Shown: positions 4,308 to 21,304 of the stretch, piece after piece | Position numbering within the stretch: the first letter of the stretch is position 1 | Layout of the letters: each line of letters begins with the position of its first letter | From: a virus | Strand: one strand, 5' to 3' | Virus record (IMG/VR): IMGVR_UViG_3300037558_002946 | DNA: 25,013 bases | The notes under the pieces: model-generated | What the model saw: only the letters and a program-made list of their open reading frames with translations | Database searches by the model: none | What the model was told of the DNA's origin: nothing | Translations under genes and position numbers: made by a program

Positions 4308-5669
4308 TTAGAACACCCCCTCAAAACTAACCTCATCTGAATTCCCGCCAACCTTAACCTTCGGAGGCGCTGACTTCGCTTTGAGTACCTTGGTCTCGAG
4401 GATCGTCAAGTAGAATTCCTTGAGATCAGTAACATCCTTTGATTTGAGTTCTTCTTCGTTGATTTCGTCAGTCAAAGCCTTGATCTTCTCAATCAATTCA
4501 GCTTTTTCACGTTCAATGTATTGCTTGACCTCGTTTGCCAATTTCTCGTTTTCTTCTTTGAGTTTAGCGTTTTCAGCTGTGAGTTCACTGTTCTTTGTCT
4601 CGAGTTCTTTGACTTTCTCCGATAATTCGCTGATTGTCGCTTCGAGTTCCTTAACCCTTTTCTCTACTTCTTCCATGTTTTCTTGGCGTGAATTTAGACT
4701 TTTTAAAGCAGAGTGGTCAGTTGCTTCCTCTTCAAGTTTGAGCGCCTTAAGAAGTACCTCTTCGTCGATCTGAAGAGTCTTCAGTACAACACCAACATCA
4801 AGAAGCGATCTATATTCTGGTGGCTCCCTTCCAAAATCGTTTTTGTAGTGGGCCGATAGGTGAGCATATATTTTGCGCTTGTCCTCCTCTGGCAATTTTG
4901 CAACAGATAGTCTGACAAAGCCAGCGATTACTCCTCTCAAGTTGACAGCGTGCGGTTTTGGATGTTTGGTCGGGTTGTGGTGTGGGAACTTCAAGTCTGT
5001 ATAGCGGTCTGGTGGATTCTTGGGAGCCCAAGCAAAGTGGGCTGCGATGAATTGTTGCTCGTCCTCGCTCAATGATTCCCAAGGCTCATCAGTAAAATCA
5101 CTCAAATTCGGTTTCCTCCAAGGCGATTCTTCATCCTTGCCATACTTGAATGTGTGGCGAGGAGATATGCCTTTAATAACCAAGTTCTTCTCGTAAACAT
5201 CTTCGACAACAGCTTCAGGGTTTGAAGGGATGCCGACAAGTGATACTTCGAGTATTTGCAATTTCTTTATCTTATTGCCCTTTCTCTCGAGTACCTTGAA
5301 GCCTATGCTGAACGCATCGAGGAATCCATTTTTAAGAGATTCGTAAATTAGCTCGAAGTATGGATGTGCCTTGTTGAGCATTACCTTTATCCAGAGCTTC
5401 AATATTCCTCTGTCTTCTTTTACAGCTGCATCCACAACTTTTCCGATTGGTATCTCATCCTCGATGTCAAAGTCTCTCTTTATTAGGGGCGCATGCCCGA
5501 TGAAAACCTTGTTGTAAGGCGGATTCACGATGTCTCTTGCCGCTTCCTGTAAGGCTTCTTCGGTTATTATTTCGTCGTGGAGGTCCTCAACAGTGGCAGA
5601 AGCGTATCCTTCAACATATACGTTTTTCTCGTCCTCTTTGGTTTTGAGAGATCTGACTACCAATTGCAT
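4308..5669 (-). CDS. Prohead protease (HK97-type) fused to an inserted domain and a C-terminal coiled-coil scaffold
   Basis: VEGYAS...D-x-H-D-E-I-I, GH, AFSIGF (catalytic Ser region), LEVSLVGIPSNPEA; long heptad C-terminus. Confidence 0.88.
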   Translation of the reverse strand: MQLVVRSLKTKEDEKNVYVEGYASATVEDLHDEIITEEALQEAARDIVNPPYNKVFIGHAPLIKRDFDIEDEIPIGKVVDAAVKEDRGILKLWIKVMLNKAHPYFELIYESLKNGFLDAFSIGFKVLERKGNKIKKLQILEVSLVGIPSNPEAVVEDVYEKNLVIKGISPRHTFKYGKDEESPWRKPNLSDFTDEPWESLSEDEQQFIAAHFAWAPKNPPDRYTDLKFPHHNPTKHPKPHAVNLRGVIAGFVRLSVAKLPEEDKRKIYAHLSAHYKNDFGREPPEYRSLLDVGVVLKTLQIDEEVLLKALKLEEEATDHSALKSLNSRQENMEEVEKRVKELEATISELSEKVKELETKNSELTAENAKLKEENEKLANEVKQYIEREKAELIEKIKALTDEINEEELKSKDVTDLKEFYLTILETKVLKAKSAPPKVKVGGNSDEVSFEGVF

Positions 5670-5688
5670 GTGAGAGTCTGCCAGAATA

Positions 5689-5699
5689 GACTTTTAAAA
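5689..5699 (-). promoter_or_regulatory. Late-type TATA element TTTTAAAAGTC, 19 nt upstream of the protease ATG
   Basis: Shared motif and spacing with the other three late units. Confidence 0.7.
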
Positions 5700-5709
5700 T
5701 GCTGATAAG

Positions 5710-6039
5710 CTAATACACCAAAGTTACACCATCTTCCGAATCGGGCATTCTTGGAGGCTTAACTTCTGGCAAGTTATCCTTAACGATCCATTCTCCCGAA
5801 TCAGCCAATTTATTCGCTGCATACCTCCATAAATATAGGTCTCTTTCCGATTTTATGAGCCACGCGAGAAATGTCGGTCTGGAGTTCATCTCCTGTCGAA
5901 TTCTCTCCAGAGCTCTTTTCCCGAGAGTACCGAATGACTTTGCTGTGACCTCGATTGGATTATGAGGGTCGCTGCCCATACCAATTATCTCTACTTTATC
6001 TGGCAATTCTTTGTGTTTGACTACTATCTTCCATTCCAT
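5710..6039 (-). CDS. Hypothetical protein, candidate immunity protein for the MuF toxin domain
   Basis: 109 aa, immediately downstream of MuF-HExxH, with its own AT-rich TATA-like element. Confidence 0.55.
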   Translation of the reverse strand: MEWKIVVKHKELPDKVEIIGMGSDPHNPIEVTAKSFGTLGKRALERIRQEMNSRPTFLAWLIKSERDLYLWRYAANKLADSGEWIVKDNLPEVKPPRMPDSEDGVTLVY

Positions 6040-6063
6040 TCTACCACTATTTCCTTATTAATA

Positions 6064-7557
6064 TTATATAAAATCTCCCCTCAACACGGAAAGCAAAAAC
6101 GCGAAGACTTCTCTGTCAGCCTCGTACAACTTCTTCATCGATTCCTCCGTGGCGAAATGCTCTAAACCGACACTCACGAACTCTGTCATTATGTCCCCCT
6201 TCAGATCTTCGATGACTTCGGGATTCTCCTTGATTCTCATCAAGTTTCTTACAGAATCCTTAGCCAACTTTGATGGATAAAATCTTCCCATGTACGGACT
6301 TATGTGCTCGAAGCCTTCGAAAATGTAAACATCATATCCAACGAACTCGTAGTTCTTGAATTCGTTCAGTCGCCTCAACTTGTAGCCTCTCTTCCTAATT
6401 CTCGCGAGATAAAACTCTTTCACGACATCTTCAGCGCCATAGTGCTCCAAGTGGTGGCCATATTCATGGAGAAAATCACGCCACTCGTTTTCACTTCCAA
6501 CCCCTCTTATCAGCGTAATTCTCTTCTTCCACCAATTGTAATGTGGATTTCCAGACTTCTGATAATTAATTTGCACATTTCCCGCTTTCTCTATCAACCT
6601 TCTGTTGACCTTTGTGGGTAACAATAATTGTATTCTCTCCCTCAAATCCTTACTGGCTCCTTTCATGTAGCTTTTGTAAATTTCCTTTCCTATTCTCTCA
6701 GACTCAATCACGCTCAATGGTCTACCATTTACAACACGATTAACAGCTTTCGTAAAGCTACCCTCTTCCTTCAACGCTTTTTCGAAATCGTCCAAAGCCT
6801 TTCCAATTTTCTCGTCGATCTCAGGAATTCCAACCCCAAATTCTTCTTTTCGCTCTTCTTCACTTTCTTTATCGAAGTAAGGCAATGTCGTGCACCGGCA
6901 ATTCGGATGCGCTGGTGGGGTAGGGTCCCCGATGTTGAATATCTTATCATGTTTCGCTCCACAAATCGGACAAGTGCGCTCGTCAGCAGCTGCGTACCAC
7001 TTCCACTTCTTCAAGCCAGCTTTCTGATAGCGGTCAATTGCTGCGGCATTAAAAACTCTCGTGGATTCCGTTCTTGCAATACGCTCTGCTTTCCATTTTG
7101 TATCGTTTATTACCTCTTTAACCCGCTTAGTTAACTCCGATATCGATTCTCCTCTAATTATCCCTTCTCTCAACTGGAAAGCTAAAGCCTTCTTCGTCTC
7201 CTCGCTCAAGCCCTTGATCAGATCGAGCTGCAAGTTCTCGAGCTGGAGCAAAGTTTCGTTGTCGAGAATGCCAAGATGTGGCGGTATTTCTATCGTGATG
7301 CCATAGCGCTTCAGCTGTCTGTTTGCGAAATCAGCTCCGCGCTGCCAGAATTGCTGAGTATAGTAAGCAACAACTTCTTCAGCCTTATCGCCAGCGAGGT
7401 GCTTCGATACGATTTGCTTTATCTCCCCGATTGTCGCCTCGTTAATCGCATCTGTAGTACCGAGAACTTCCAGGATTTCTCGCTTTGCCGATTCTGAAAG
7501 CTTTCTCAGCGCTTTAACATACTCTTTTCTGAGGAGCTTTGTCTTCGTTGGATCCAT
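6064..7557 (-). CDS. Head morphogenesis protein (SPP1 gp7/MuF) with C-terminal zinc-metallopeptidase (HExxH) toxin-like extension
   Basis: MuF core RIARTE...W-x-W-x-A-A-x-D-E-R-T-C-P-I-C...PPAHPNCRC. The C-terminal ~250 aa contain FLHEYGHHLE, PYMGRFY and TEFVSVGLEHF. Start re-assigned to ATG 7557. Confidence 0.85.
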   Translation of the reverse strand: MDPTKTKLLRKEYVKALRKLSESAKREILEVLGTTDAINEATIGEIKQIVSKHLAGDKAEEVVAYYTQQFWQRGADFANRQLKRYGITIEIPPHLGILDNETLLQLENLQLDLIKGLSEETKKALAFQLREGIIRGESISELTKRVKEVINDTKWKAERIARTESTRVFNAAAIDRYQKAGLKKWKWYAAADERTCPICGAKHDKIFNIGDPTPPAHPNCRCTTLPYFDKESEEERKEEFGVGIPEIDEKIGKALDDFEKALKEEGSFTKAVNRVVNGRPLSVIESERIGKEIYKSYMKGASKDLRERIQLLLPTKVNRRLIEKAGNVQINYQKSGNPHYNWWKKRITLIRGVGSENEWRDFLHEYGHHLEHYGAEDVVKEFYLARIRKRGYKLRRLNEFKNYEFVGYDVYIFEGFEHISPYMGRFYPSKLAKDSVRNLMRIKENPEVIEDLKGDIMTEFVSVGLEHFATEESMKKLYEADREVFAFLLSVLRGDFI

Positions 7558-7558
7558 G

Positions 7559-8779
7559 TTACTCTTCCTCTTTTGGTGGTTCTGGTGGCAGATCGATCCA
7601 TTCTCTTGCTTCTCCAAGCGTTACAACGCCAGCTTGATACAGCTTGACCGCCTGATCGACCCAATCGCTGTAGTCCTCCCTGAGCGGATTGTTGAACTTG
7701 AACCTGACATCTGCATCAGTGATGCGTGGAATCAGCTTTCTGTTGATTTCAGCCTCGAATTTGCGCTGGATACTCTCGATGAACAGCATGAACGTGCGAC
7801 GTTGGTTGTATGACGTGGCTCTGTTGCTACCCTCAGCCTCCCCCAAGAAAACTTTCGGTACCTTCAGAGCTCTATCCACCTGCCGCTGCAGATGCTCGAG
7901 TATTTTCGCTATGCCTGCGAAGTCGTGAGAGGCTGATAGGTCCTTCAATTCAACAGTTTGATCAAAAACAAGATTGTTGCTCACAGTAAAAGTTCCATCA
8001 AGGTTATCTTTCACCCTATCAGCGAGCAACTCGTTCACAGCCTCAAGCTTCTCCTCAGCGTATGTTTTTCCAGTCTTAGGATTTATTGCTTCATCTTCTG
8101 GAGTTAACTCCACCTTGGCCCAAAGCAATCGGTGGGCATCACGATGGGCCATGGCTGCTGCTGTCGCTTCTATCTTATTCTTTATGCTGAGTTTATTATA
8201 GACATTGTGCAACAAGCTCAAACCATAAACATTGTCCGCAAATTGCCTAAAGCGGAAGTGAAGGACATCCTCTGGCTCGAATTTGTACTCTGGATCTCCA
8301 ATGAATGTTGCGTTGTAATCGTACCAATAAAATTGTATTCTACCATACTCGTCCGTTACGATTTTGACACGCTTTGGGTGAACAACTTGAAGAGTAAAAC
8401 CAAAATCGTTGTCCTCCTCGACAATGAAATTGTAAGCGTTTCCAAAAATCAGATGAGTTAACACATCGTTTTCCAAGATGTCCCAAAATCCGACTTCAGC
8501 TGCAAACTCCTCGCACCTCTCAACAGCTTTCGGCTCGCCGATGAACTGAAAGCCAGCTCCAACAACCAAGTATGTGATGGTCTCAAGGTGGGCTTGAGCG
8601 TCTTCGCTTATATTGTAAAGCCATTCGTATTCGTCGTAGTTAACACGAGGGTCGAATCCAGGTGAACTTTCCAATGGTTTGGCTACAAGAATTGCCTTGT
8701 CGGACTTGTACTTGAACTCCCTTCTTCTTTGTGTCTTGGGCATGTCATTCGAGAACCTACGGATGATTCTGTTCAGCAT
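7559..8779 (-). CDS. Portal protein
   Basis: 406 aa between terminase and MuF; motifs LIFGNAY, VLHFRF...VYGLSLL, LKVPKVFLG...NRAT. Confidence 0.88.
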   Translation of the reverse strand: MLNRIIRRFSNDMPKTQRRREFKYKSDKAILVAKPLESSPGFDPRVNYDEYEWLYNISEDAQAHLETITYLVVGAGFQFIGEPKAVERCEEFAAEVGFWDILENDVLTHLIFGNAYNFIVEEDNDFGFTLQVVHPKRVKIVTDEYGRIQFYWYDYNATFIGDPEYKFEPEDVLHFRFRQFADNVYGLSLLHNVYNKLSIKNKIEATAAAMAHRDAHRLLWAKVELTPEDEAINPKTGKTYAEEKLEAVNELLADRVKDNLDGTFTVSNNLVFDQTVELKDLSASHDFAGIAKILEHLQRQVDRALKVPKVFLGEAEGSNRATSYNQRRTFMLFIESIQRKFEAEINRKLIPRITDADVRFKFNNPLREDYSDWVDQAVKLYQAGVVTLGEAREWIDLPPEPPKEEE

Positions 8780-8798
8780 GTAAGAGTGGGCAGATTTA

Positions 8799-8809
8799 GA
8801 CTTTAAATA
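8799..8809 (-). promoter_or_regulatory. Late-type TATA element TATTTAAAGTC, 19 nt upstream of the portal ATG
   Basis: Shared motif and spacing with the other three late units. Confidence 0.7.
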
Positions 8810-10138
8810 TCAGCCAACGACTCCATAAACCCTCCTCAACGATCTGCCTCCGTGACCCGCTGCCCACACAGCAAGGGCCAACGCTATGACACAATCATCA
8901 TGCATGCCTTGCCTCGCCTCCATCTTTATTCCTTGCCTCGTGAGTTGATACTCGAAGAATTGTAGCTCTTTTATCAGCTCCTCTATGTATGGATACTTGA
9001 CTTCGCCATTCTCGATTGCCGCTTGCAAGCGCTGGATCAATTGGACCTTCGACTTTGCAGTGAAGACATATCCTTCAGCTCCGATATCCTGCAAGTCCTC
9101 GAGTACTGGATCTCCAACACCACTGGAATCGATCAAAACTTTGGCGTAGTTGAAGCGCTTGTACAATTCCTTCAACTTCAATATCGTTTCGGCGTAGGGG
9201 CGGCGGTTGAATCGCTGGAAGTGGACGAGTTTGAAGGGCTTATTCGTGATGTCAAGTACTATGATGACCGTATAATCGAGATACTTCGCCAGATCGCAAC
9301 CGATAGCGTAGATTCTCCCTGGCTGCCCCATATCGACGAGTTCGATGTTGGAGATGTTTCTCTGGATGTCGGCCCACCTGAAAACAGCATTCTGGTCCTC
9401 TACGAACTCCGCGAGGTATTCTGTGCGGAAAATGATCGAGTTCTCGCCATACTCTCTCTTTTTCTTCTCTATGAACTCGTGACTGATATGGGGATTGGCT
9501 GTAGAAGGGAAGCGATAGCTGCTGTAGTCTTCGAACTCTTCCGATTGCCCCTTGAGGTAGGAATCGTAAAAGTGGTTCTTTCCGAATGGCGTTCCGATTT
9601 TGATCCATGATCCATTGAAATCTGCTAACATTGGCTCGACAACTTGGCTGATGACATCATCGGGAATGTAAGCAGCTTCGTCGAGGATTGCCCTATGCGC
9701 CTTGTGGCCTCTCAAGTACTCTGGCTTTGTTGTCGAGCGAGCGTGGATCTCGCTGCCATTCCTAAATATAATCTTGCTGAAGGGAGTTTTGTAGACTCGC
9801 TCGATGAGGTGAACAAGAATCGATTTAGAAAGTAGGGTCGTTATCTCCCAAAACATGATATTTGCTTGGTTGTAGGATGGGGCGAGGATGAACTGAATGG
9901 ATCCAGGATGAGTTATGGCGTAGTGGATGGCCGAAAACGCCATCGCTTTGGTCTTGCCGAAACGTCTGCCAGCAACAACAGTTATGAACTGATGCTTGTC
10001 GCGGAGGATCAGCTTTTGAGCTTCGTGGGGCTCGTGGTTTAGGAATATTTGTGTGAACAGAACTGGATCCCTTATGGCTTGCTTAATCTTCTTTTTGTCC
10101 TTGCCGAGTTCCGATATCAAATCGTCGAGCTTACTCAT
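8810..10138 (-). CDS. terL: Terminase large subunit
   Basis: Walker A AGRRFGKT, Walker B AILDEAA, coupling motif IGTP, RNase H-like nuclease IGCDLAKYLDYT and HDDCVIALALA. Confidence 0.95.
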   Translation of the reverse strand: MSKLDDLISELGKDKKKIKQAIRDPVLFTQIFLNHEPHEAQKLILRDKHQFITVVAGRRFGKTKAMAFSAIHYAITHPGSIQFILAPSYNQANIMFWEITTLLSKSILVHLIERVYKTPFSKIIFRNGSEIHARSTTKPEYLRGHKAHRAILDEAAYIPDDVISQVVEPMLADFNGSWIKIGTPFGKNHFYDSYLKGQSEEFEDYSSYRFPSTANPHISHEFIEKKKREYGENSIIFRTEYLAEFVEDQNAVFRWADIQRNISNIELVDMGQPGRIYAIGCDLAKYLDYTVIIVLDITNKPFKLVHFQRFNRRPYAETILKLKELYKRFNYAKVLIDSSGVGDPVLEDLQDIGAEGYVFTAKSKVQLIQRLQAAIENGEVKYPYIEELIKELQFFEYQLTRQGIKMEARQGMHDDCVIALALAVWAAGHGGRSLRRVYGVVG

Positions 10139-10586
10139 CTTCCTTCAAAGCTTCTTCAAACAATGCTAAGAGCTTGGAGGCTGGATCTTGAATGTTGCCA
10201 GCGAGCTCGTGCTTAAGTTTGATCGCTCTAAACATAGCGTTCGTGCATACTTCCACGACCCTTGGCTTCTTTTCGGGATCGACCTTCATAGCGTAATTGC
10301 GCATCCTGGCAATTATATCGTTCAAAGCTTTGATCTCATCCACAACCTTATCGGCTCCCTCCTCGAGTTGTTGATAGTACTTCTCCACACCCCTCTTCAC
10401 GAAATTGAAGTGTCTCTTGTGCCTGGTTATGTTGGACTTACTAAGCTTTAAATCGGGGAATTTTGCGATGATCTCGCTGTAAGGACGCCCTTCAATCAAC
10501 ATTTGATTAATTTCCTCAAGGTGTTCGGAGCGGCAAATCTTGCATCTCGGGTTCAAGAGTTGCGCAACATTTTCGGAGTTACTCAT
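10131..10586 (-). CDS. terS: Terminase small subunit (N-terminal CxxC/HTH)
   Basis: Directly upstream of and overlapping terL; RCKICRSEH...YSEIIAKF...SKSNITRHKRH HTH followed by helical oligomerisation segments. Confidence 0.75.
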   Translation of the reverse strand: MSNSENVAQLLNPRCKICRSEHLEEINQMLIEGRPYSEIIAKFPDLKLSKSNITRHKRHFNFVKRGVEKYYQQLEEGADKVVDEIKALNDIIARMRNYAMKVDPEKKPRVVEVCTNAMFRAIKLKHELAGNIQDPASKLLALFEEALKEDE

Positions 10587-10606
10587 GGTTGCGCTTGTTG
10601 TGGATG

Positions 10607-10616
10607 GACTTTAAAA
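10607..10616 (-). promoter_or_regulatory. Late-type TATA element TTTTAAAGTC, 20 nt upstream of the terS ATG
   Basis: Shared motif and near-identical spacing with the other three late units. Confidence 0.7.
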
Positions 10617-10648
10617 GAGAGATTAGTTGAGACAATGGAGAAATCCCA

Positions 10649-10698
10649 ATGTTCTACAGTAGAAACCTTATTATAGGTAGGTTTCTACTGTAGAACAT
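10649..10698. repeat. Perfect 20-bp inverted repeat, each arm containing the palindrome TTCTAC-W-GTAGAA, flanking a TATA-like element (probable operator pair)
   Basis: ATGTTCTACAGTAGAAACCT (10649-10668) / TATTATAGGT / AGGTTTCTACTGTAGAACAT (10679-10698); the right arm overlaps ATG 10697. Confidence 0.9.
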
Positions 10699-10978
10699 GA
10701 AGTACGAGGTGTGTGATGTTAAGGAGTACGTGAAGAAGAGTAAAAAAAGAGGTCGTTGGTACGCGTGGACTCAAACTGTCATAAATCTCAGCGCTGATTG
10801 GCAAGGAGTGCCATTTGTTGCAATATTAGACTACAAGTTTGTCGCGGAGTTGTGGAACTTTCTCAGCAAAATCAAGGGAAGAATTGGCGAAGTTCAACTC
10901 GAAATCGAGTGTGAAGACTGGCTTATAAAATTCGAAGCGATGAAATCAGTCATGGAAAAGAAAATGCACGAAGTCTGA
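10697..10978 (+). CDS. Small putative transcription regulator (AbrB/swapped-hairpin-like)
   Basis: The only credible plus-strand gene; fills the gap between early and late modules; has its own TATA and operator; basic beta-rich N-terminus (KKSKKRGRWYAWTQTVINLSADWQG). Confidence 0.6.
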   Translation: MKYEVCDVKEYVKKSKKRGRWYAWTQTVINLSADWQGVPFVAILDYKFVAELWNFLSKIKGRIGEVQLEIECEDWLIKFEAMKSVMEKKMHEV

Positions 10979-10990
10979 TCTGACAATTTT

Positions 10991-11656
10991 TTACAAAAAC
11001 TCCTCAAAATCCGAAAACGTGATGTATTCGACTCTCTTCTTTCCTTCTGGAGGTAAGAGTCTTCTCTTTGACTTGTTTTTATTATACTCGGCGAGGAATT
11101 TTATCATCGCTTCCTCGACCTCATCGAATTCTGCAAATTCATCTCCAAAGATCGAACGTATCATCCACTTTCTCAAAAACCCATAGAAGAAACTCTCTTC
11201 TGGTAAGTGTGTCGTGAACTTCCTATAAAATGGTAGCGAGTTCTTCTTCAAGTAGTGCAACCTCTTGCTCCTCAATGACCTCTCATCACTAAAATAATAC
11301 GTGCTGTGATGCACAAACTTGTAATTATCCCTCTCAATGAACTCGATCCCCCCACTTTTCAACAACTCGAATCCATCTTGAGTCTCATTCACCTTATAGA
11401 CTCCAATCCAAGATGGCAAGCAATCTGGCATCTTAGCTTTAGGACCCAAAACTAAGAAAACAGCATCGCAAATGTAAACATATTGAGGAAGTTGCTCGAG
11501 GATTCTCATCGGCTTATCGTTATCTCCCTTGATCTCGAAGCCAATTATGTTGTCAGCATAAAGCCCAAGCACATCGAATACCGAACCCTCGTAAATCGCA
11601 TCGAAGTTCCTTAAAATTGTTTTCTTCAACAACTCCTTAATTTCGCGCTCGTTCAT
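10991..11656 (-). CDS. PD-(D/E)XK nuclease-fold protein (sce7726/MmcB-like)
   Basis: FDVLG...IGFEIKGDNDKPMRILEQLPQYVYICDAVFLV...LPSWIGV matches the D...EIK-x-D-x-D...RL..Q...Y...D pattern. Confidence 0.7.
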   Translation of the reverse strand: MNEREIKELLKKTILRNFDAIYEGSVFDVLGLYADNIIGFEIKGDNDKPMRILEQLPQYVYICDAVFLVLGPKAKMPDCLPSWIGVYKVNETQDGFELLKSGGIEFIERDNYKFVHHSTYYFSDERSLRSKRLHYLKKNSLPFYRKFTTHLPEESFFYGFLRKWMIRSIFGDEFAEFDEVEEAMIKFLAEYNKNKSKRRLLPPEGKKRVEYITFSDFEEFL

Positions 11657-12923
11657 TAGCCTCTCTCCTCAAGAAGACTTCAAGGTCGCTTTGCACCCAA
11701 GATTGTTTGATGTTCTTCCAAAACAAATTCAGGCGACTTCTCCAGTACGGGCTGTTTTCCCAACGCTTTGAAAGATAAAAATAATAGCGATCTGGATCGT
11801 TAGCAAATTCATTGGCTATTTCTTCCTCTTTTTTTACAACCCAAGCGTTGTGGAGTGCTCTGACAGTAAAACCATCTTTCTTGTGAGCCTTGAATGCTTT
11901 GACAAGAATATCGAATGGAATGTCGTGGAAGATATAGTCGGGATCCGCATGAACCTCTCTGAGCAAGTTGAGTTCTTTGGATCCGAGCTTGTTTCTCTTG
12001 ACACCTACTGGAACCCCAACGTGTTCTGGCAAATAGATGGTCCAGAACCTTGCCGCAATCCTCCAACTCGAGCCATCCGAGAATTTTGCTCCACCGAGGA
12101 AGCCGAGATGCATGAAATTTATGTTTGCGGCTCCAAGGAGGAACACTTCTCTATCTCTCAGCAAATTTAGGGCTGTGGCGAGGCGTTCAAAGATGACATT
12201 GACAGGTGTGAGGTCTTTTCCATTGCTGCCATTGCTGGATCCAGCGGGCTTATGTTGGTTGCCGACTTGAGGAGCTGGATGCGTATCAGCTGCATAAACA
12301 CCAAGTCCGATCTTGCGAGTATATTGGGCATCCAAAGGATGATCGTGTTTCGGTCCTTCGTAAGAGTTATTTATCCCCGAAAAAGTTCCGATACCCAACA
12401 AATTCGTGTCCTTTGTTGTGGCGTGATATGTTCCGAGAGCGAGTCTGTCCGGATCTTCGATAAGATTTAAACTTTCCAATAATTCTCCGAGGGTCCAACC
12501 ATGAACCACTGGAATGACTGGAACGTGTTCGAGCATGATGTGGTAGAATTCAGCTGACTTTCTTATCAATTTCCGACGATCCTCACAACTCTGATAGTAC
12601 GCTGGTGGAAGGTCGAGTTGGATAAGAATGTCTTTTTTAGTGTAGCCCATTTTCTTGTAAACAGCAACAGTTCTGAGTGGATCTGGATTTTTCAACTTGC
12701 CCGTAAGGAATTGGAAACCTCCACTGTCGTAAACGAGGCGATGACTACTACCGAACTTATGGCGAAAGCCCATACTATTGTTGGACTTATAGAAAGGAAC
12801 TACCGAAAAAAGGAGCTCATTAAAGTAGTCTTCGACATAAGGGTGTTTGCCCACACACTCAACTTGATGAGAAAGGAATACGATTATTTCTTTTGCCGCT
12901 TCTTGGCTTTTAATCCCCTTCAT
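11637..12923 (-). CDS. tRNA-guanine transglycosylase-fold protein, DpdA-like (putative 7-deazaguanine DNA transglycosylase)
   Basis: DSGGFQ (12711-12728), IQLDLPP, IPVVHG, VFLLG, FSDGSSW (nucleophile Asp in a DpdA-like D-S/G-S-S-W context) and ALHN. It lacks the CxCxxC zinc motif and any PUA domain. Confidence 0.8.
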   Translation of the reverse strand: MKGIKSQEAAKEIIVFLSHQVECVGKHPYVEDYFNELLFSVVPFYKSNNSMGFRHKFGSSHRLVYDSGGFQFLTGKLKNPDPLRTVAVYKKMGYTKKDILIQLDLPPAYYQSCEDRRKLIRKSAEFYHIMLEHVPVIPVVHGWTLGELLESLNLIEDPDRLALGTYHATTKDTNLLGIGTFSGINNSYEGPKHDHPLDAQYTRKIGLGVYAADTHPAPQVGNQHKPAGSSNGSNGKDLTPVNVIFERLATALNLLRDREVFLLGAANINFMHLGFLGGAKFSDGSSWRIAARFWTIYLPEHVGVPVGVKRNKLGSKELNLLREVHADPDYIFHDIPFDILVKAFKAHKKDGFTVRALHNAWVVKKEEEIANEFANDPDRYYFYLSKRWENSPYWRSRLNLFWKNIKQSWVQSDLEVFLRREANERARN

Positions 12924-13071
12924 CCTCTTTTACCCACTCCAACAATTTCTTGATCTTCAAGTAGATGCAACTCTCAATTTCGTTCGGACACTCCCAACTC
13001 CACTCGCAATACTCGCATACTTCCTCGTCGAGCCACCTTTCGATGTCGCTAATCAACTTGTCAACATCCAT
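12910..13071 (-). CDS. Small Cys-rich protein (53 aa), not in the ORF track
   Basis: MDVDKLISDIERWLDEEVCEYCEWSWECPNEIESCIYLKIKKLLEWVKEDEGD; overlaps both neighbours; GAGGGAG RBS. Confidence 0.65.
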   Translation of the reverse strand: MDVDKLISDIERWLDEEVCEYCEWSWECPNEIESCIYLKIKKLLEWVKEDEGD

Positions 13072-13312
13072 GTATCTCCCTCAAAACGCTCTCCAACCGC
13101 GACAAATCCGATCCAACAATAGAAGCGATTGGCACTTCGTTCTCAAGCACCACAATAGTTGGCAGCGATTGAACGAAATATTTCTTCGCCAATTCTCCAT
13201 TCTTTTCGACATCGACCTCTTTGAAGTCGATCCCTCGCTCTCTCAAATATTGCTTGACGATTTTACAAGGAGCACACCATCTGGCCGAAAAAAGCAAGAT
13301 TTCTACCACCAT
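13061..13312 (-). CDS. Thioredoxin/glutaredoxin-like redoxin
   Basis: FSARWCAPCK active site and cis-Pro motif VQSLPTIVV. Confidence 0.9.
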   Translation of the reverse strand: MVVEILLFSARWCAPCKIVKQYLRERGIDFKEVDVEKNGELAKKYFVQSLPTIVVLENEVPIASIVGSDLSRLESVLREIHGC

Positions 13313-14037
13313 TCCACCTCCAAAAAGCCCTCTTCTACCAACATTATAGCTTCGGCAAGTTTGTACGCCATCAAAGGTGGGACAGCGTTGCCTATTTGCG
13401 CGTATTGCTCTTCGAGAGTTCCATAAACTACGTAATCAAGCGGGAAAGTCTGAACGATTTTTGCCTCTGGAATCAAGCTTCTTCTGCGGAAGACTTTACT
13501 CAACCCTCCGCGCGATGTCTTCCATCCTCTTCTGTACTCGCTCGCAAGAACAGTTGGAAATATAACATCCACGGGTTGTTTTTTGGGTTCGGGAAAATCT
13601 CCAGCAAACAATCGCCTTCTCAGTTGTGGAACTCCGAAGTCGGACATCCTGTATATTCTGACTTTCGGGACATCGGGAGGAAGGTAGTCTCTGGCGAGGG
13701 GCGTTTCCTCCATGATCACGTACTTCGGTTTTTTCTTGCGGACTATCTCCCAAAACCAGTTTATGAGAGATGTATCGTGCGTTCGCTTGTGATTCGCAAC
13801 GCTGTGGTCCTGGCAAGGTGGAGAGCCTATAATTATGTCGCAATTCGGAATGTCTTTGGGATCCACATTTAAAGCATCCTCGCAATGGACATCAACGTGA
13901 GGAAAGTTAGCCTTGTAGCTCCTGCAAGCAATTTCCCACTTGTCGAGAGCGTAGATTATCTCGAAACCAGCATAATCAAATCCCAAGCTGAACCCTCCGC
14001 AACCGCAAAATAAATCGATTACCTTAAGTGTCCTCAA
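13303..14037 (-). CDS. DNA (cytosine-5)-methyltransferase, compact
   Basis: Motif I IDLFCGCGG, IV GSPPCQ, VI variant VIMEETP, VIII QLRRRLF, IX/X EAKIVQTFP...QIGNAVPP. Confidence 0.92.
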   Translation of the reverse strand: MRTLKVIDLFCGCGGFSLGFDYAGFEIIYALDKWEIACRSYKANFPHVDVHCEDALNVDPKDIPNCDIIIGSPPCQDHSVANHKRTHDTSLINWFWEIVRKKKPKYVIMEETPLARDYLPPDVPKVRIYRMSDFGVPQLRRRLFAGDFPEPKKQPVDVIFPTVLASEYRRGWKTSRGGLSKVFRRRSLIPEAKIVQTFPLDYVVYGTLEEQYAQIGNAVPPLMAYKLAEAIMLVEEGFLEVEWW

Positions 14038-14809
14038 ACTCTATTCCTCCATAATCCGACAGAACTCTCTTTCCCATCATATGCATGATTCTTCGATACA
14101 ACGCTGGATTCACTTGAGATAGTTGCTTCTCCCAACCAATGAAGCCAGTACAAGTCATGCAACCATTTCTATCTGCAAAATCGTAGATTGGATTGATCGG
14201 AAGTTGTTTTACTTCGATGTATTCCCAAATATCCTTGTCTGTCCAATAAGCCAAGGGATGCGCTCTTAAAATTGGCCTCTTGAATTTCGTATCGCCTATC
14301 CTCTTCGTCCAATAAAGTGGTCCTTTGTTCGCAATGTGGAGTTTTCTTGTCCTTGACTCAAATGCGGAAATTCCAGTGAACACACAATCGATGTTGTTGC
14401 TCTTATAGAAATCATTGGCTGGCTTGTTCTTGAGATACCAGCAACACTTGGGCTCCTTTTTATACCACCTTCTGTGGTCTGGAAAGCCATACTTCTTTAC
14501 GATCTGCCAGAAATTCTTCTCTGGCTTTAGCTCGTAGAAATTCAAGTTCCATTCTCTGGCAATTCTCCTGACAAACTTTAAATTTTGGGGATATTCAACA
14601 CCAGTATTGCAGAAGACAACTATAATGTTGGGCTCGAATTGAAGGACCAAGTGTAATAAGACCAAAGAATTCTTTCCACCACTAAAAGCTACAGCTTGCT
14701 TTGTTGTTTGCTTTAAAGCATCTTGGATTATTCGTTCAGCAATCTCTATCTTTTTGCTAAGAGGTTTATCGAGCCAATCCTCGATCTCCTTGAGTTTAAT
14801 GTAGCTCAT
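14024..14809 (-). CDS. PAPS/APS-reductase family (PP-loop, Fe-S) protein
   Basis: AFSGGKNS, FCNTGVEYP, CCWYLK, FTGISAFESRTR, HPLAYWTDKDIWEYI, RNGCMTC. Confidence 0.9.
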   Translation of the reverse strand: MSYIKLKEIEDWLDKPLSKKIEIAERIIQDALKQTTKQAVAFSGGKNSLVLLHLVLQFEPNIIVVFCNTGVEYPQNLKFVRRIAREWNLNFYELKPEKNFWQIVKKYGFPDHRRWYKKEPKCCWYLKNKPANDFYKSNNIDCVFTGISAFESRTRKLHIANKGPLYWTKRIGDTKFKRPILRAHPLAYWTDKDIWEYIEVKQLPINPIYDFADRNGCMTCTGFIGWEKQLSQVNPALYRRIMHMMGKRVLSDYGGIEFEDT

Positions 14810-16338
14810 GGCTCTCCCTTGATCATCCTCTCGATATTGTCGAGACGTACCATCAGCGTGGCGATTGCGTTAATCAATTGGATCATTCTATCCTGCTTCG
14901 AAGCTCTCTCGACCCTCTCAAGGAAAAGTCTTTCGAGGCGCTCTATTCTCTTTTCTATGCTCGAAAACATGGACTTCATTATGTCTTCGAAGTTTTGCTG
15001 CGACATGCCACCAGCAATACAAGCCTCTATAGCATCTATGCGTTGTTGGATTTGCTGGATTTGTGGCTTAAGTTGAATTGCTGCTTCCAACCCTTCTCTT
15101 ACCAAATCGATCTCCTCTGGATTGTCGGACTCTATGTGGCCTTCACCATGACTGGCATCAATCCATAGTCTTTCATTCAAGCGAATCGGAGATGTTTCAA
15201 CAATACCTCCATTTTGCATCAATGTTTTAGTTCGACTTTCGTTGCGCAATTTCTTCATGATGTTTTGGATGAGTTTTGACTTCAAAGCCCATTCTGGCTT
15301 GCTCAATAGGTAAGGCTTGTCGAGCTCTATTTCGACACCCTTAGCATATTGCTCTCGAAGCCATATTTGAACAGCCCTATCCAACATCCGTATAACTTCA
15401 GCTGCTGCTTCCTCCGCAGATTTATCGATAAATTCAACATCTTCAGCAAGTTCTGCTACGACTTTGTACTTTAACGCCCGGATCCGGACAACTATGCTGT
15501 TGACAGTGATCAAGTATACGTGGCCAGTCCAACCCTTTGGTGTGTACGATTTGAGGTACGACTGACATTCGGTTGAGAAGGGTTGATTTTGGTTGACAAT
15601 GTGATAAGCCAATTGCAAGCGGTGCACATTGATCGGGAGCTTTTGCGGGGAGCTAACATCCCTGTTGTTGCGTGGTTGACAATTGGGTTTGCTGTGTGCC
15701 TTTATGAATGCGATGATAGCTTTCTTAACGACATATAACTTGTCCCTCTTTTTTCCGAAGCCCCAATGAGACCCTTTCTCTGCGATGAATCCCCATTTTA
15801 TGAATTTCTTAACCCACTTGTGTACCGCTTGCCTCGATATTCTGAGTTTTCTGGCAATCTGGCTTTGAGTTAAGCCTTCGTATAACAATTTCAGAATTTG
15901 CTTAGCTCTCTCACATAAGTTCTCGAGTATGCCTATATCCCTAAGGTCCAAGGGTTTGTCAACCACCCATGTTGGAGGTTTGTCAACCACATTGTCAACA
16001 TGTGTTCTTGGTCTCGTGTCCTTACTTTTTGTGATTGCTCGGCCATTCTTTGAGATACGATATGATAACCCATGATGTGATTGCTCTGTTTCAAAAATGG
16101 AGGATGGAGATTGCTTTGATTCGTTGAGTTTTGTCAACCCATCATCATGAGATTGACTATCAATCTCGCTGTCAACCAAGACTATGTATGTCTCGCTGCC
16201 AACATACCTCCTCTCGACTGGCAGCGATAAGAGATGCCACTCGATGGATGGTACAGGATAACCAGTAAGCTCGGCCAATTCCTTTAAAGTGCGAGGTTTC
16301 TCCTGGAGAATAGTTATTATGCGGTCTCTGATGCTCAT
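14806..16338 (-). CDS. Multi-wHTH protein, putative replication initiator
   Basis: N-terminal wHTH (PRTLKELAELTG), low-complexity linker, second HTH (GLTQSQIARKLRISRQAVHKWVKK), alpha/beta domain and C-terminal coiled coil. The gene contains iteron-like repeats. Confidence 0.55.
   Translation of the reverse strand: MSIRDRIITILQEKPRTLKELAELTGYPVPSIEWHLLSLPVERRYVGSETYIVLVDSEIDSQSHDDGLTKLNESKQSPSSIFETEQSHHGLSYRISKNGRAITKSKDTRPRTHVDNVVDKPPTWVVDKPLDLRDIGILENLCERAKQILKLLYEGLTQSQIARKLRISRQAVHKWVKKFIKWGFIAEKGSHWGFGKKRDKLYVVKKAIIAFIKAHSKPNCQPRNNRDVSSPQKLPINVHRLQLAYHIVNQNQPFSTECQSYLKSYTPKGWTGHVYLITVNSIVVRIRALKYKVVAELAEDVEFIDKSAEEAAAEVIRMLDRAVQIWLREQYAKGVEIELDKPYLLSKPEWALKSKLIQNIMKKLRNESRTKTLMQNGGIVETSPIRLNERLWIDASHGEGHIESDNPEEIDLVREGLEAAIQLKPQIQQIQQRIDAIEACIAGGMSQQNFEDIMKSMFSSIEKRIERLERLFLERVERASKQDRMIQLINAIATLMVRLDNIERMIKGEP
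15499..16178. repeat. Dispersed iteron-like repeats, consensus TTGTCAACCA(C), 8 copies in two opposing orientations
   Basis: Direct copies: 15956-15966, 15980-15990, 15992-15999, 16131-16139, 16170-16178. Inverted copies: 15499-15505, 15590-15599, 15672-15682. Confidence 0.8.
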
Positions 16339-17367: not shown

Positions 17368-17563
17368 TGGTGTTACCTCCAAAGAAAGCGAAGCAAGGAA
17401 GGATTGCAACAAAGTCAGCTTCTGGATTGAGCTTGCTGTCATACAGATCTTCGGCAAATTCTTTGGCCTCGTCGAAATACTTGAAAGGTTTTGCGTTCAC
17501 GATTTGCTCGTACCCCTCCAACTTAGCATTGTAATGATTCTCAACCCACAGAACTAAGAACAC
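17354..17563 (-). CDS. Hypothetical protein (69 aa)
   Basis: Fills the gap, overlapping both neighbours; GTG start with RBS. Confidence 0.55.
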   Translation of the reverse strand: MFLVLWVENHYNAKLEGYEQIVNAKPFKYFDEAKEFAEDLYDSKLNPEADFVAILPCFAFFGGNTNEGN

Positions 17564-18188
17564 GATTCCATCCCTCCATCTCTCCCTCGAACTCGATTGG
17601 TAGATCGATTCTGTAGCGGCGCTGGATGTTGTGTTTGCAAAGATCTTTCAATCTGAGGAACAAGTGAAAAATTGTCTCGATGTCTCTCTGGCAATGGGCC
17701 CTTATCTCCGCAAATTTCGATTCCTCGTACAACTTCGGTATATCTCTGCCAGATATCTCAGAATCGTATGGAAGGCCAAGATATTCCGCGATTTCTTTCA
17801 GTTTTACGTGCTTGTTGTTGGGTTGGAGATACCTCGTAACAACATACATAAGATCCACGCGATAAAGCTGCCTCAATCGCGTAACGAGCGACGAGTTGTA
17901 CTCGTGTTTTAGATATCTCGCAGAAATAAAGGGTATGTCAAAGCTGATGTTGTATCCAATTATGCAATTCGAATCGTTTTCAGTGAGCTTGTAGATAGCT
18001 TTTACAATCATGTCGTCTTCGCTGTACTCGTCCCTCGACAGCACTTCGACTCTGAGCTTGTCATCCTCGATGTACCCTACGCCTATTGCTACTATCTCGC
18101 ACTCTGTTTTCTTTTCAGTCGGGATGGGGTCCAAGCCAGTCGTTTCGATATCGAGAAAAACAGGATTTAATCGGAGAATTGCTGTCAT
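17541..18188 (-). CDS. DEDD 3'-5' exonuclease (DnaQ/PolB-exo/RNase H-like)
   Basis: ExoI FLDIETTGLDP, ExoII IIGYNISFDIPF, ExoIII HCQRDI. Confidence 0.9.
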   Translation of the reverse strand: MTAILRLNPVFLDIETTGLDPIPTEKKTECEIVAIGVGYIEDDKLRVEVLSRDEYSEDDMIVKAIYKLTENDSNCIIGYNISFDIPFISARYLKHEYNSSLVTRLRQLYRVDLMYVVTRYLQPNNKHVKLKEIAEYLGLPYDSEISGRDIPKLYEESKFAEIRAHCQRDIETIFHLFLRLKDLCKHNIQRRYRIDLPIEFEGEMEGWNRVLSSVG

Positions 18189-19320: not shown

Positions 19321-20025
19321 TCATCGCACCTCCGGAAATTCTTGGATCTTCTCTGGCCATCGCAAGTTGTTCTTGAGGAAAATTGGGATTCCAAGTTCTC
19401 TTGCTGGCTTTATTATGCGTTCCACCCACTCTGGCTTAGGTGGGCGATAAGGATTGGTTTGGGCACCAACGATTATCCAATCGATGCCCTCGAAATCATC
19501 TGGCTCAAAAACACTCGGTTGCTTTAGCAATGGTTCAAAGCTCAGAAATCTGACCGATGGAGTTTTGGCTCTGAGCAACCAAGATTTAGCCACGTACAGA
19601 TTTGCAAGATTCACACCATCTAATGTCGCTCCAATCCAAGTGTTCTTTGGAAATGCGAACCACGAGTACCTTCTCGGATTCTTCGTCAAAAATTGAAATA
19701 CATGCTGCGAGTTGTCCTTGACAACATTGAGGACTTTGTGAACCCACTCTATTGGCACCCAAGCACCAAAAAGGTCTCCCATACTGACTGTGAAGATCAT
19801 AGCGCTACCCATTGGGAGGTACGGATTCCTCGATCTGAAACTCTTTGGAACACTGTTATATGGCTCTTTCAGTCTTTCAGAGTGGAATGTTGGAGCATAG
19901 CCATACGGAAATAGCTTTTTGAAGCGATTAGCGATTTTGCGACCATAACAATAGGGGCAATTATGCAAGCAACCAGTTACAGGGTTCCAAGTGAAATCGG
20001 TCCATTCGATCTTTGTCCTATTCAT
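19321..20025 (-). CDS. DUF5131 / phage gp37-gp68 family radical SAM protein
   Basis: MNRTKIEWTDFTWNPVTGCLHNCPYCY (CxxxCxxC), FTVSMGDLF, FQFLTKNP, FLSFEPLL, IDWIIVGAQT, IPIFLKN, QEFP. Confidence 0.9.
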   Translation of the reverse strand: MNRTKIEWTDFTWNPVTGCLHNCPYCYGRKIANRFKKLFPYGYAPTFHSERLKEPYNSVPKSFRSRNPYLPMGSAMIFTVSMGDLFGAWVPIEWVHKVLNVVKDNSQHVFQFLTKNPRRYSWFAFPKNTWIGATLDGVNLANLYVAKSWLLRAKTPSVRFLSFEPLLKQPSVFEPDDFEGIDWIIVGAQTNPYRPPKPEWVERIIKPARELGIPIFLKNNLRWPEKIQEFPEVR

Positions 20026-20209
20026 ATCCTCCACCACTCCTGAGTTCGTCAACAAAAGCCCAAACGAGAACTGGAAGCCAAAGCACCATAGCTAAAAGCA
20101 ACGTGATCAATTTGTCCTCGGGCTTCTTGTGGTATTTTGTGGCTCCAAAGCCTACCCAAGCCCCAATTGCAAAATAAATTAGAATCAGAATTGATAACGC
20201 TGCCATCAT
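20018..20209 (-). CDS. Small membrane protein (2 TM)
   Basis: 63 aa with two hydrophobic helices separated by KYHKKPEDK. Confidence 0.65.
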   Translation of the reverse strand: MMAALSILILIYFAIGAWVGFGATKYHKKPEDKLITLLLAMVLWLPVLVWAFVDELRSGGGYE

Positions 20210-20581: not shown

Positions 20582-21304
20582 CTATCCCTCGTACTCTATT
20601 CTTGGAGCCAAGAAATACTCCACAACGACACTTCCGATTTCGAAGTGCAACCTCACTGGATAATCGGTGCCAAGATGTATCGTGAGCAAATCGTCAGATG
20701 ATGCGACTTTTAGCATCATTTCCAAGTAATCCAAGCCAAACATGCTTCTGGCTTCAGCGCCCTCGAACTCTTCAAGATCCGCAGAATCGATTTCGAGAAC
20801 GAGCCTATCGATATCTCCTTTTGCTTCTACGTAGAACGATTCTTTGTCGGTTCTGAAAATTACGCTGTCAGATATGTTTTTAGCAAGAGAAATGAACTTC
20901 TTGACTTCTTCAACCTTCAAAGTTATCTTGGCTGGCAAATCCAAGCTTGGTTGTTTAGGCTCCCTTCTTATTGCCGAAGGATCTATGGCTTTAAGCTCGT
21001 ATGCCATGTTCCCGCTTCGCAACTTTATTGCTTTTCCATCGAAAACGATGTCTACTAAATCGTCCTTTTTCAGTCCTTTCAACAAATCGTTGAGTCTGTC
21101 TATGTCCACACCCACGATCTCTTCCTTCGCATCGAAGGCTTCGAAAGCATCCAATGGTACTTTCACGATGACCATCGCGACATTGCTGGCATCCACAGCT
21201 CTGACATTGAGTCCATCGTTGAATCGAAACTTTGCCTCGCTGACAAAAGGTCTGAGAGCTTGTACTACTGTTTTAAGAATAGAAGCCTTGCATATTACAT
21301 TCAT
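20582..21304 (-). CDS. pcn: DNA polymerase sliding clamp (PCNA)
   Basis: RAVDASNVAMV, GVDIDRL, IDPSAIRREP, ARSMFGLDYL, LTIHLGTDYPVRL and YFLAPRIE are characteristic of euryarchaeal PCNA and close to Archaeoglobus PCNA as recalled. Confidence 0.96.
   Translation of the reverse strand: MNVICKASILKTVVQALRPFVSEAKFRFNDGLNVRAVDASNVAMVIVKVPLDAFEAFDAKEEIVGVDIDRLNDLLKGLKKDDLVDIVFDGKAIKLRSGNMAYELKAIDPSAIRREPKQPSLDLPAKITLKVEEVKKFISLAKNISDSVIFRTDKESFYVEAKGDIDRLVLEIDSADLEEFEGAEARSMFGLDYLEMMLKVASSDDLLTIHLGTDYPVRLHFEIGSVVVEYFLAPRIEYEG

Follow-up and report, generated by a model that had tools for sequence, protein, structure and literature searches.

Viral DNA hypermodification drives an arms race with restriction systems and is a source of enzymes for biotechnology, and two groups of described systems are relevant to the locus analyzed here. 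The first is the DpdA transglycosylases, of which five subfamilies have been described (PMC10516641), namely, bDpdA, the phage enzymes DpdA1-3, and the archaeal-virus enzyme DpdA4 (PMC6884629, PMC10516641); viruses that encode DpdA alone have been proposed to use preQ0 made by the host (PMC8651126, PMC6884629). The second is the PAPS-reductase-like proteins. In BREX and Dnd systems, DNA methyltransferase (MTase) and PAPS-reductase-based modification modules swap for one another (PMC12839542), and viral PAPS reductases have been annotated as sulfur auxiliary metabolic genes (AMGs) in papers on Asgard and haloarchaeal viruses. We found no experimental study of any viral PAPS-reductase-like protein in the literature. 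Here, we analyze a 25,013-nucleotide (nt) stretch of DNA (IMGVR_UViG_3300037558_002946; hereafter, the window) from a tailed virus of an Archaeoglobus-family archaeon. It carries a block of five minus-strand open reading frames (ORFs) that encode a PP-loop protein of the PAPS-reductase fold, a C5-cytosine DNA methyltransferase, a redoxin, a 53-amino-acid (aa) protein with four cysteines (Cys53), and a DpdA-like transglycosylase of the tRNA-guanine transglycosylase (TGT) superfamily. A sequence-only reading of this DNA had proposed that the five genes constitute a single hypermodification pathway. By a narrow balance of probability, we favor a different explanation, in which the block is a mosaic whose nucleic-acid-modification modules are exchanged separately rather than one five-step pathway.

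Much of what the sequence-only reading described was borne out. The five ORFs span positions 14809 to 11637 exactly where it had placed them, each overlaps the next (by 14, 10, 11, and 14 nt, in that order), and a GGAGG- or GAGG-like motif resembling a Shine-Dalgarno (SD) sequence lies a few nucleotides before every one of the five starts. The identities that it had assigned hold (an Fe-S enzyme with SGGKNS and CC...CxxC motifs, a methyltransferase, a WCAPC redoxin, a four-Cys 53-aa ORF, which is putative, and a transglycosylase), and, as it had noted, dndA/D/E are not seen among the 20 window proteins that were scanned with Pfam, PHROGs, or PADLOC. The unbroken overlap, with an SD-like motif at every junction, favors the model that it drew from these genes, namely, one redox- or sulfur-dependent hypermodification. 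Under this model, the thioredoxin would reduce the PP-loop/Fe-S enzyme, and Cys53 would be a sulfur or metal carrier. However, the overlap chain does not stop at the block but continues into unrelated genes on both sides, with an overlap of 4 nt into a 510-aa helix-turn-helix (HTH) gene upstream and of 20 nt into a 221-aa gene downstream. Tight coupling is therefore a trait of the whole early operon and is not specific to these five genes.

The five-gene block is not a conserved unit, because the loci of its homologs hold different combinations of genes and because Cys53 and the redoxin are singletons; these two members are lineage-specific. We fetched 52 transglycosylase loci and retained 51 after dropping one duplicate. 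None of the 51 has a redoxin or Cys53, one has a C5 methyltransferase, and four have a PP-loop gene, in each case of another subfamily. The closest transglycosylase relatives, L005 (80% identical) and L006 (78%), have no PP-loop, methyltransferase, thioredoxin, or four-Cys gene nearby within the metagenome contig segments available, over which loci L005 to L007 were read. In L006, a homolog of the 510-aa HTH protein (HTH510) precedes the transglycosylase gene, with three small unrelated ORFs in between. In the PP-loop set (160 loci, from which the contexts of the closest metagenomic homologs, P0095 to P0120, at 45 to 77% identity, are missing), there is no transglycosylase (0/160) and a redoxin at a single locus (1/160). 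Thioredoxins and glutaredoxins are also absent from the families matched by at least 2 of 150 randomly sampled direct neighbors of PP-loop homologs. A PP-loop ortholog that is 82 to 83% identical is found in a genome of the same genus (G006), in a related element with a different gene order (exonuclease, DUF5131, 125-aa gene, PP-loop gene, HTH510 homolog). This locus has no methyltransferase, thioredoxin, or Cys53, and there is no transglycosylase gene anywhere in the 99%-complete genome.

These loci do not support the claim that the five genes form one pathway. The sequence-only reading had taken random association of the genes in related elements as the mark of a wrong model, and what the co-occurrence analysis reveals is intermediate: the block is not conserved, but certain pairs recur, namely, PP-loop with methyltransferase and TGT with PP-loop or radical S-adenosylmethionine (SAM) genes. 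Based on the transglycosylase relatives that lack the PP-loop, methyltransferase, thioredoxin, and Cys genes, the G006 PP-loop gene that lacks a transglycosylase, and the singleton status of Cys53 and the redoxin, we infer that the modules are independent. Module 1 would be a PP-loop/[4Fe-4S] ATP-pyrophosphatase-type enzyme, similar to BrxP, SspD, and DndC, paired with a DNA methyltransferase that is here of the C5 type. Module 2 would be a DpdA-like transglycosylase of a new clade that, probably tethered to PCNA, would replace guanine with a host-made 7-deazaguanine in viral DNA that has just been replicated; queC, queD, and ArcTGT are present in the host. The redoxin and the four-Cys mini-protein would stand outside both modules. 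The whole block was found in 12 DNA sequencing runs from 9 studies, which may be the block's own source, and no RNA sequencing runs with the block were listed. Four DNA runs with part of the block represent fragmented contigs of the same element, with no joint across the block, and are uninformative about modular variants, as are the uncovered bins in X16.

The 428-aa transglycosylase on its own has no match in Pfam, PHROGs, NCBIfam, PADLOC, or a PDB sequence search, and neither PF01702 (TGT) nor PF20314 (DUF6610, which is DpdA4) matches it at E ≤ 10. Its family comprises 93 homolog clusters, and a profile of 34 members matches the archaeal TGT, ArcTGT (1iq8), at E = 9e-5 and Salmonella DpdA (7ui4) at only E = 0.75. 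An AlphaFold model of the protein (predicted local distance difference test [pLDDT] value of 74.6, with the core mostly at 78 to 96) matches ArcTGT, QTRT1, and bacterial TGT with a Foldseek probability of 1.0. Superposition on TGT structures gives VIA Z values of 26 to 28 over ~320 aligned residues with a root mean square deviation (rmsd) of ~3.1 Å, and ArcTGT is among the top matches (Z of 27.1, 321 residues, rmsd of 3.1). Residues D66, D104, and D283 are invariant in the 34 members (alignment A1) and are aligned to D95, D130, and D249 of ArcTGT; their catalytic and substrate roles we take to be those of the corresponding aspartates in ArcTGT and the Z. mobilis TGT. This aspartate triad suggests a working guanine-exchange enzyme. 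In contrast to ArcTGT, the window protein has no C1, C2, or PUA domain for tRNA binding and has lost the CxCxxC...H zinc site; the aligned segment reads HADPDYIFHD, and only P0042 and P0093 retain the cysteines. It also differs from ArcTGT in being encoded by a mobile element and in having a disordered insert of 70 to 80 residues (residues 157 to 235; pLDDT of <50) that is rich in G, P, H, and N. The insert is limited to the Archaeoglobaceae-type clade, P0001 to P0005, and is missing in relatives of ~40% identity.

Like DpdA, the window transglycosylase is a virus-encoded TIM barrel of the TGT superfamily, with the aspartate of DSGG, the second substrate aspartate, and the nucleophile aspartate conserved, and, like the enzymes of Salmonella phage 7-11 and HRTV-29, it is encoded alone, with no preQ0 pathway beside it, in a host that can supply preQ0. 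It differs from DpdA in several respects. Most members of its family have no zinc site, the family as a whole has a C-terminal PCNA-interacting protein (PIP) box, and its partners are DUF5131/SplB-like radical-SAM genes and PAPS-reductase-family genes rather than QueC/D/E, DpdB, and DpdC. At the sequence level, it lies in a clade outside the five described DpdA subfamilies. No relative was detected by tblastn (E ≤ 1e-3) in 50,697 phage and archaeal-virus records, and a scan with the family profile found none in viral contigs and only 4 in genome contigs.

We searched the last 30 residues of each protein for the PIP-box pattern Q..[LIMV]..[FYW][FYWLIVM] and found it in 75 of 93 family members (81%), compared with 16 of 1553 ORFs of the host (1%), which served as the control set. 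In the window protein, it is QSDLEVFL (residues 411 to 418). We know of no report of a PIP box on a DpdA. The window transglycosylase is probably tethered to PCNA through its C-terminal motif, and the virus-encoded PCNA is its likely docking partner. The absence of the ArcTGT tRNA-binding domains, the presence of the PIP box, and the viral PCNA encoded nearby together suggest that the enzyme acts on DNA at the replication fork. Host-made preQ0 is a plausible donor base, since the host genome has queC and queD side by side and since there is the precedent of DpdA-only viruses; the same genome has two TGT-family genes, ArcTGT among them. If such a base is inserted, the modification may serve to protect viral DNA against restriction.

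TGT-like genes were also observed in cellular genomes. Of 120 genomes from one archaeal class, 43 have one chromosomal TGT-like gene of ~325 aa (L238 to L266, from Thermoprotei genomes G104 to G211) that scores 60 to 120 bits against the viral family profile and is sub-threshold for Pfam TGT. It adjoins a HerA/DUF87 helicase gene in 10 of 30 loci and a PP-loop (ATP_bind_3) gene in two, and these Thermoprotei HerA-TGT loci may relate to the HerA+TGT "BRC" defense systems (PMC12839542). In another locus, from a genome of the same family as the host (L230; G028:C3, positions 4068 to 14647), a PP-loop homolog is located 4 kb from a canonical TGT gene (PF01702, 2e-24), which is followed by a DUF5591 protein and then by a 1413-aa protein with no Pfam match.

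The PP-loop protein has the fold of a PAPS reductase without that enzyme's catalytic thiol, and its ATP-pyrophosphatase motif is a true one, as in DNA-phosphorothioation enzymes. Across 34 homologs, the SGGKNS motif (S43, G45, and S48) and four cysteines (C122, C123, C217, and C220) are invariant, and the CC and CxxC cysteines line up with the [4Fe-4S] ligands of the APS reductase 2goy. The AF2 model (pLDDT of 95) has its best Foldseek matches to CysH/APS reductase (6vpu and 2goy), followed by CysD, FAD synthase, and TtuA/NcsA. In CysH, an ECGLH-type cysteine forms an S-sulfocysteine that is reduced by thioredoxin. The window protein has no such C-terminal cysteine after the CxxC, and none is conserved in the 34 homologs. 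Because it has the canonical SGGKNS motif and lacks this cysteine, we conclude that the enzyme is not CysH. PADLOC profiles match BrxP (8e-21, over positions 118 to 320 of 779 only), SspD (5e-7), and DndC (4e-4), which it resembles in its SGGK[ND]S PP-loop, Fe-S-type cysteine set, and linkage to DNA-modification genes; it differs from them in being only 261 aa long, so that the rest of the 779-position BrxP profile has no counterpart. By its sequence relationships, the protein appears to belong to a viral BrxP/SspD/DndC-like clade whose nearest functional relatives are DNA-modification enzymes. The sequence-only reading had likened it to DndC, and that comparison holds insofar as BrxP, SspD, and DndC are these nearest relatives. 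The thioredoxin-dependent PAPS reductase logic that accompanied it cannot be extended to this protein, which lacks the thiol that thioredoxin reduces in CysH. None of the dnd, ssp, or BREX partners (DndA/D/E, SspA/B/C, PglZ/BrxC/BrxL, or a cysteine desulfurase) was detected among the 20 scanned proteins of the window, a search that did not extend to the host genome; within that scope, a DndC-like part in phosphorothioation would lack its partner proteins. In the host genome, the window PP-loop gene is the sole strong match to PF01507.

These properties bear on a further alternative, in which the PAPS-reductase gene and the thioredoxin boost sulfate assimilation by the host and the transglycosylase acts on tRNA. 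Such an assignment would follow the AMG annotations mentioned above and is consistent with a fold and Fe-S cysteines that match those of assimilatory APS reductase. However, the ECGLH-type catalytic cysteine is missing across the family, the PP-loop is not the degenerate motif of CysH, and there is a strong positional linkage of PP-loop genes to DNA methyltransferases and ParB-methyltransferases (see below). The transglycosylase lacks the C-terminal domains with which ArcTGT binds tRNA and carries a PCNA-binding motif instead. We therefore regard this alternative as very improbable. Since the catalytic C-terminal cysteine is absent and the relatives are DNA-modification enzymes, a DndC-like framing fits better than the sulfur AMG label. 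We infer that the enzyme acts on DNA rather than in sulfate assimilation and that its step would be an ATP-dependent activation on DNA or on a DNA-modification precursor. A DNA-marking role also fits because such modules interchange in BREX and Dnd systems (PMC12839542). A PIP box was considered for this family as well but is not claimed (strict matches in 14/120 members and loose ones in 32/120; K replaces Q in the window copy).

One recurrent pairing is that of PP-loop genes with DNA methyltransferases. Within 1 kb of the PP-loop gene, the density of ORFs for N6/N4 methyltransferases, some of which are ParB fusions, is 10.7 per 100 kb, compared with ~1.5 per 100 kb at a distance of 2 to 8 kb, a ~7-fold enrichment that is descriptive rather than a formal test, as the loci are related to each other. 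All 31 of the N6/N4 methyltransferase ORFs within 1 kb share the strand of the PP-loop gene. In L133 (47% identity), two methyltransferase genes are directly behind the PP-loop gene, and in the viral contig L209 (7968 to 10997), a 415-aa PP-loop homolog is directly followed by a 575-aa C5 methyltransferase. The L209 homolog has a ~120-aa insertion that splits the PAPS-reductase domain. The closest parallel to the window is the gp58/gp60 PAPS reductase-DNA methylase pair of the isolate HFTV1, in which the order is MCM, hypothetical, PAPS reductase, small hypothetical, and DNA methylase, with PCNA a few genes farther on. In both viruses, the PP-loop gene precedes the methyltransferase gene, the pair comes after replication genes and before terminase, and PCNA is in the region; in the window, the pair is extended by thioredoxin, Cys53, and transglycosylase. 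In contrast to the phage phrog_424 genes, which adjoin N6/N4 or ParB-methyltransferases, the window gene has a methyltransferase of the C5 type. In HRTV-29, a PAPS reductase gene is directly before TerS, and DpdA is 6 kb off, beside a YaaA/DpdC-like gene. The window block likewise occupies a variable slot between replication genes and terminase genes, in the distal part of a long early operon, and this slot looks like a variable modification island.

Other neighbors of PP-loop genes were observed as well. In loci L053 to L212, 2 of 150 sampled direct neighbors are S-adenosylmethionine synthetases and 2 of 150 are dCMP deaminases, a possible sign of a connection with SAM or nucleotide metabolism. 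About 10 PP-loop loci from Methanosarcinales-type genomes have a conserved cellular context that includes an AI-2E transporter and a glutamate-synthase-like oxidoreductase.

The window methyltransferase is short but complete, with a very short target-recognition region. It matches PADLOC MTase_II (2e-54) and, in two stretches, PF00145, and its translation contains FCGCGG (motif I), PPCQ (motif IV, with the catalytic cysteine), and GNAVPP (motif X). It most likely methylates cytosine in viral DNA. Palindrome statistics do not indicate a target; CCGG is scarce in the window alone (7 observed and 16 expected), and these numbers are small.

The redoxin and Cys53 are lineage-specific additions without a demonstrable link to either module. 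The redoxin has a thioredoxin fold with WCAPC in its translation and matches both the thioredoxin and the glutaredoxin families of Pfam. A word-index search of 5.8 billion clusters matched only the protein itself, and its identity to host paralogs is ≤33%. An 84-aa ORF in L008 with a weak thioredoxin score is a coiled-coil sequence without CxxC and is not a redoxin. Cys53, with cysteines at positions 19, 22, 28, and 35 (C19, C22, C28, and C35), is an ORFan. Among 1.84 billion representative proteins, it matched only itself, it has no Pfam, PHROG, or PADLOC match, and it is absent from all of the loci fetched; it is a putative gene supported by position, overlap, and SD-like motif only. The model in which these two proteins serve the PP-loop enzyme has in its favor that PAPS-reductase-family proteins canonically work with thioredoxin and that the PP-loop enzyme is similar to the DNA-sulfur enzymes BrxP, SspD, and DndC and, in fold, to the Fe-S thiolases TtuA/NcsA. 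Nevertheless, the cysteine that thioredoxin would reduce is missing, no homolog of a cysteine desulfurase, DndD/E, or SspB/C is among the window proteins scanned, and the block with its singleton thioredoxin and ORFan is conserved in no relative and continues into unrelated genes. A single five-gene pathway is thus quite improbable.

The mosaic explanation that we favor has weaknesses of its own, which weigh against it. Only 15 of the 51 transglycosylase loci extend ≥800 nt beyond the transglycosylase gene in both directions, as most are on short metagenome contigs, and the absence of a partner is therefore often untestable; related loci are, moreover, not independent samples. The zinc site of the TGT/DpdA type is missing from the transglycosylase, and no gene for deazaguanine synthesis or tailoring is in the window. 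Finally, PP-loop genes of two subfamilies adjoin transglycosylase genes in the close relatives L007 and L032 and in the more distant L012, and this adjacency points to a functional link between modules 1 and 2.

The linkage among TGT, PP-loop, and radical-SAM genes is the best argument for some coupling between modules, and it gives rise to the main rival explanation, in which the TGT-like enzyme, a PAPS-reductase-family PP-loop enzyme, and a DUF5131/SplB-like radical-SAM enzyme together make or tailor a nonstandard DNA base. This could be a nonorthologous echo of QueE (radical SAM), QueC (PP-loop), and TGT, or a tailoring of the base in situ; the methyltransferase, thioredoxin, and Cys53 would be bystanders. 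A DUF5131/SplB-like radical-SAM gene is beside or near the transglycosylase gene in 9 of 51 loci. A PAPS-reductase-family gene adjoins it in L007, L012, and L032 and is 2.3 kb away in L024; these PP-loop genes are 23 to 28% identical to that of the window, and the two that were scanned (L007 and L012) are SspD-like in PADLOC. That the PP-loop subfamily varies by locus is the pattern expected of functional recruitment. In L007 (3 to 2345), a C-terminal fragment of DUF5131, an SspD-like PP-loop gene, and a TGT gene (63% identical) are contiguous and co-oriented; no other locus has the candidate three-enzyme module in so compact a form. In the window, all three genes are within 8.4 kb, and in G006, the DUF5131, 125-aa, and PP-loop genes are in a row. 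DUF5131 and the radical-SAM genes that flank TGT genes also have Cx3CxYC and further motifs in common.

On the other hand, the transglycosylase genes of L005 and L006 have neither partner in the segments available, G006 has PP-loop and DUF5131 genes but no TGT gene, and a DUF5131-like gene is found in only 4 of 160 PP-loop loci and a TGT gene in none. In the window, unrelated genes separate the trio, and all three are typical early-region genes, which cluster anyway. Reading the TGT neighbors as QueE/QueD was rejected, as the radical-SAM genes match the PA0069, Rv2578c, and "mobile pair B" (SplB-like) families instead of QueE. A 150-aa neighbor family of the TGT loci has no Pfam or NCBIfam match, and we found a single mention of DUF5131 in the literature. 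Overall, we consider a three-enzyme pathway unlikely, and we retain the mosaic of exchangeable modules, probably of an anti-restriction type, as the preferred explanation.

The features of the window are listed in Table 1. The gene surroundings of the block are those of a tailed archaeal virus, and no PF00589 integrase is on the contig. HTH510 serves as a syntenic anchor, as it has homologs in two of the related loci. The 221-aa gene has no homolog among the fetched loci and is a member of the overlap chain but of no conserved module; its GFEIKGD segment could be a PD-(D/E)XK-type motif. CTAG is absent from the window (positions 1 to 25013; 0 observed compared with ~31 expected from a Markov model) and has an observed/expected ratio of 0.10 in the host genome. 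This avoidance suggests CTAG-directed restriction pressure common to virus and host.

Table 1. Genes of the window discussed in the text, with the support for each assignment
Feature	Position	Strand	Support
221-aa gene, phrog_984 (function unknown)	10991-11656	-	Overlaps transglycosylase gene by 20 nt
TGT-superfamily (DpdA-like) transglycosylase, 428 aa	11637-12923	-	Family profile and structure matches
Cys53 (53 aa, four Cys), putative coding	12910-13071	-	ORF, overlaps, SD-like GAGGGAG motif
Thioredoxin/glutaredoxin-fold redoxin, 83 aa, CAPC	13061-13312	-	PF00085 1e-10, PF00462 1e-9, phrog_22
C5-cytosine DNA methyltransferase, 244 aa, TTG start	13303-14037	-	PF00145 3e-43, phrog_116 2e-49
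PP-loop protein, PAPS-reductase fold, 261 aa	14024-14809	-	PF01507 1e-31, phrog_424 4e-45
HTH510, 510-aa HTH protein	14806-16338	-	HTH Pfam matches; homologs in L006 and G006 (L229)
TerL	8810-10138		
3'-5' exonuclease-like gene	17541-18188		
DUF5131 radical-SAM-like protein, Cx3CxYC	19321-20055	-	PF07505 3e-40
Virus-encoded PCNA	20582-21304	-	PCNA_N 7e-12, PCNA_C 2e-7

In a compact viral operon, gene overlap and co-orientation are a poor guide to whether genes share a pathway. The value of this block lies in a transglycosylase clade that is unclassified and bears a PCNA-binding motif and in the case that it makes for viral "PAPS reductases" as DNA-modification enzymes. In its boldest form, which we offer as a doubtful proposal, a sixth lineage of DNA transglycosylases, tethered to PCNA and carried by mobile elements of thermophilic archaea, would act with the PP-loop and DUF5131/SplB-like radical-SAM enzymes to install an undescribed base (a tailored deazaguanine or another guanine replacement) at the replication fork, and viral "PAPS reductases" would be mislabeled DNA-modification enzymes. 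Viral genes with this label are routinely counted as sulfur AMGs in viromics; we argue that the label is wrong because the catalytic cysteine is missing and because the genes are positionally locked to DNA methyltransferases, and if so, ecological interpretations would be affected. If the proposed role of the transglycosylase is true, a DpdA-like clade with a clamp-binding motif would tie guanine replacement physically to archaeal replication and would provide a concrete candidate for modified DNA in the viruses of hyperthermophiles, where almost nothing is known.

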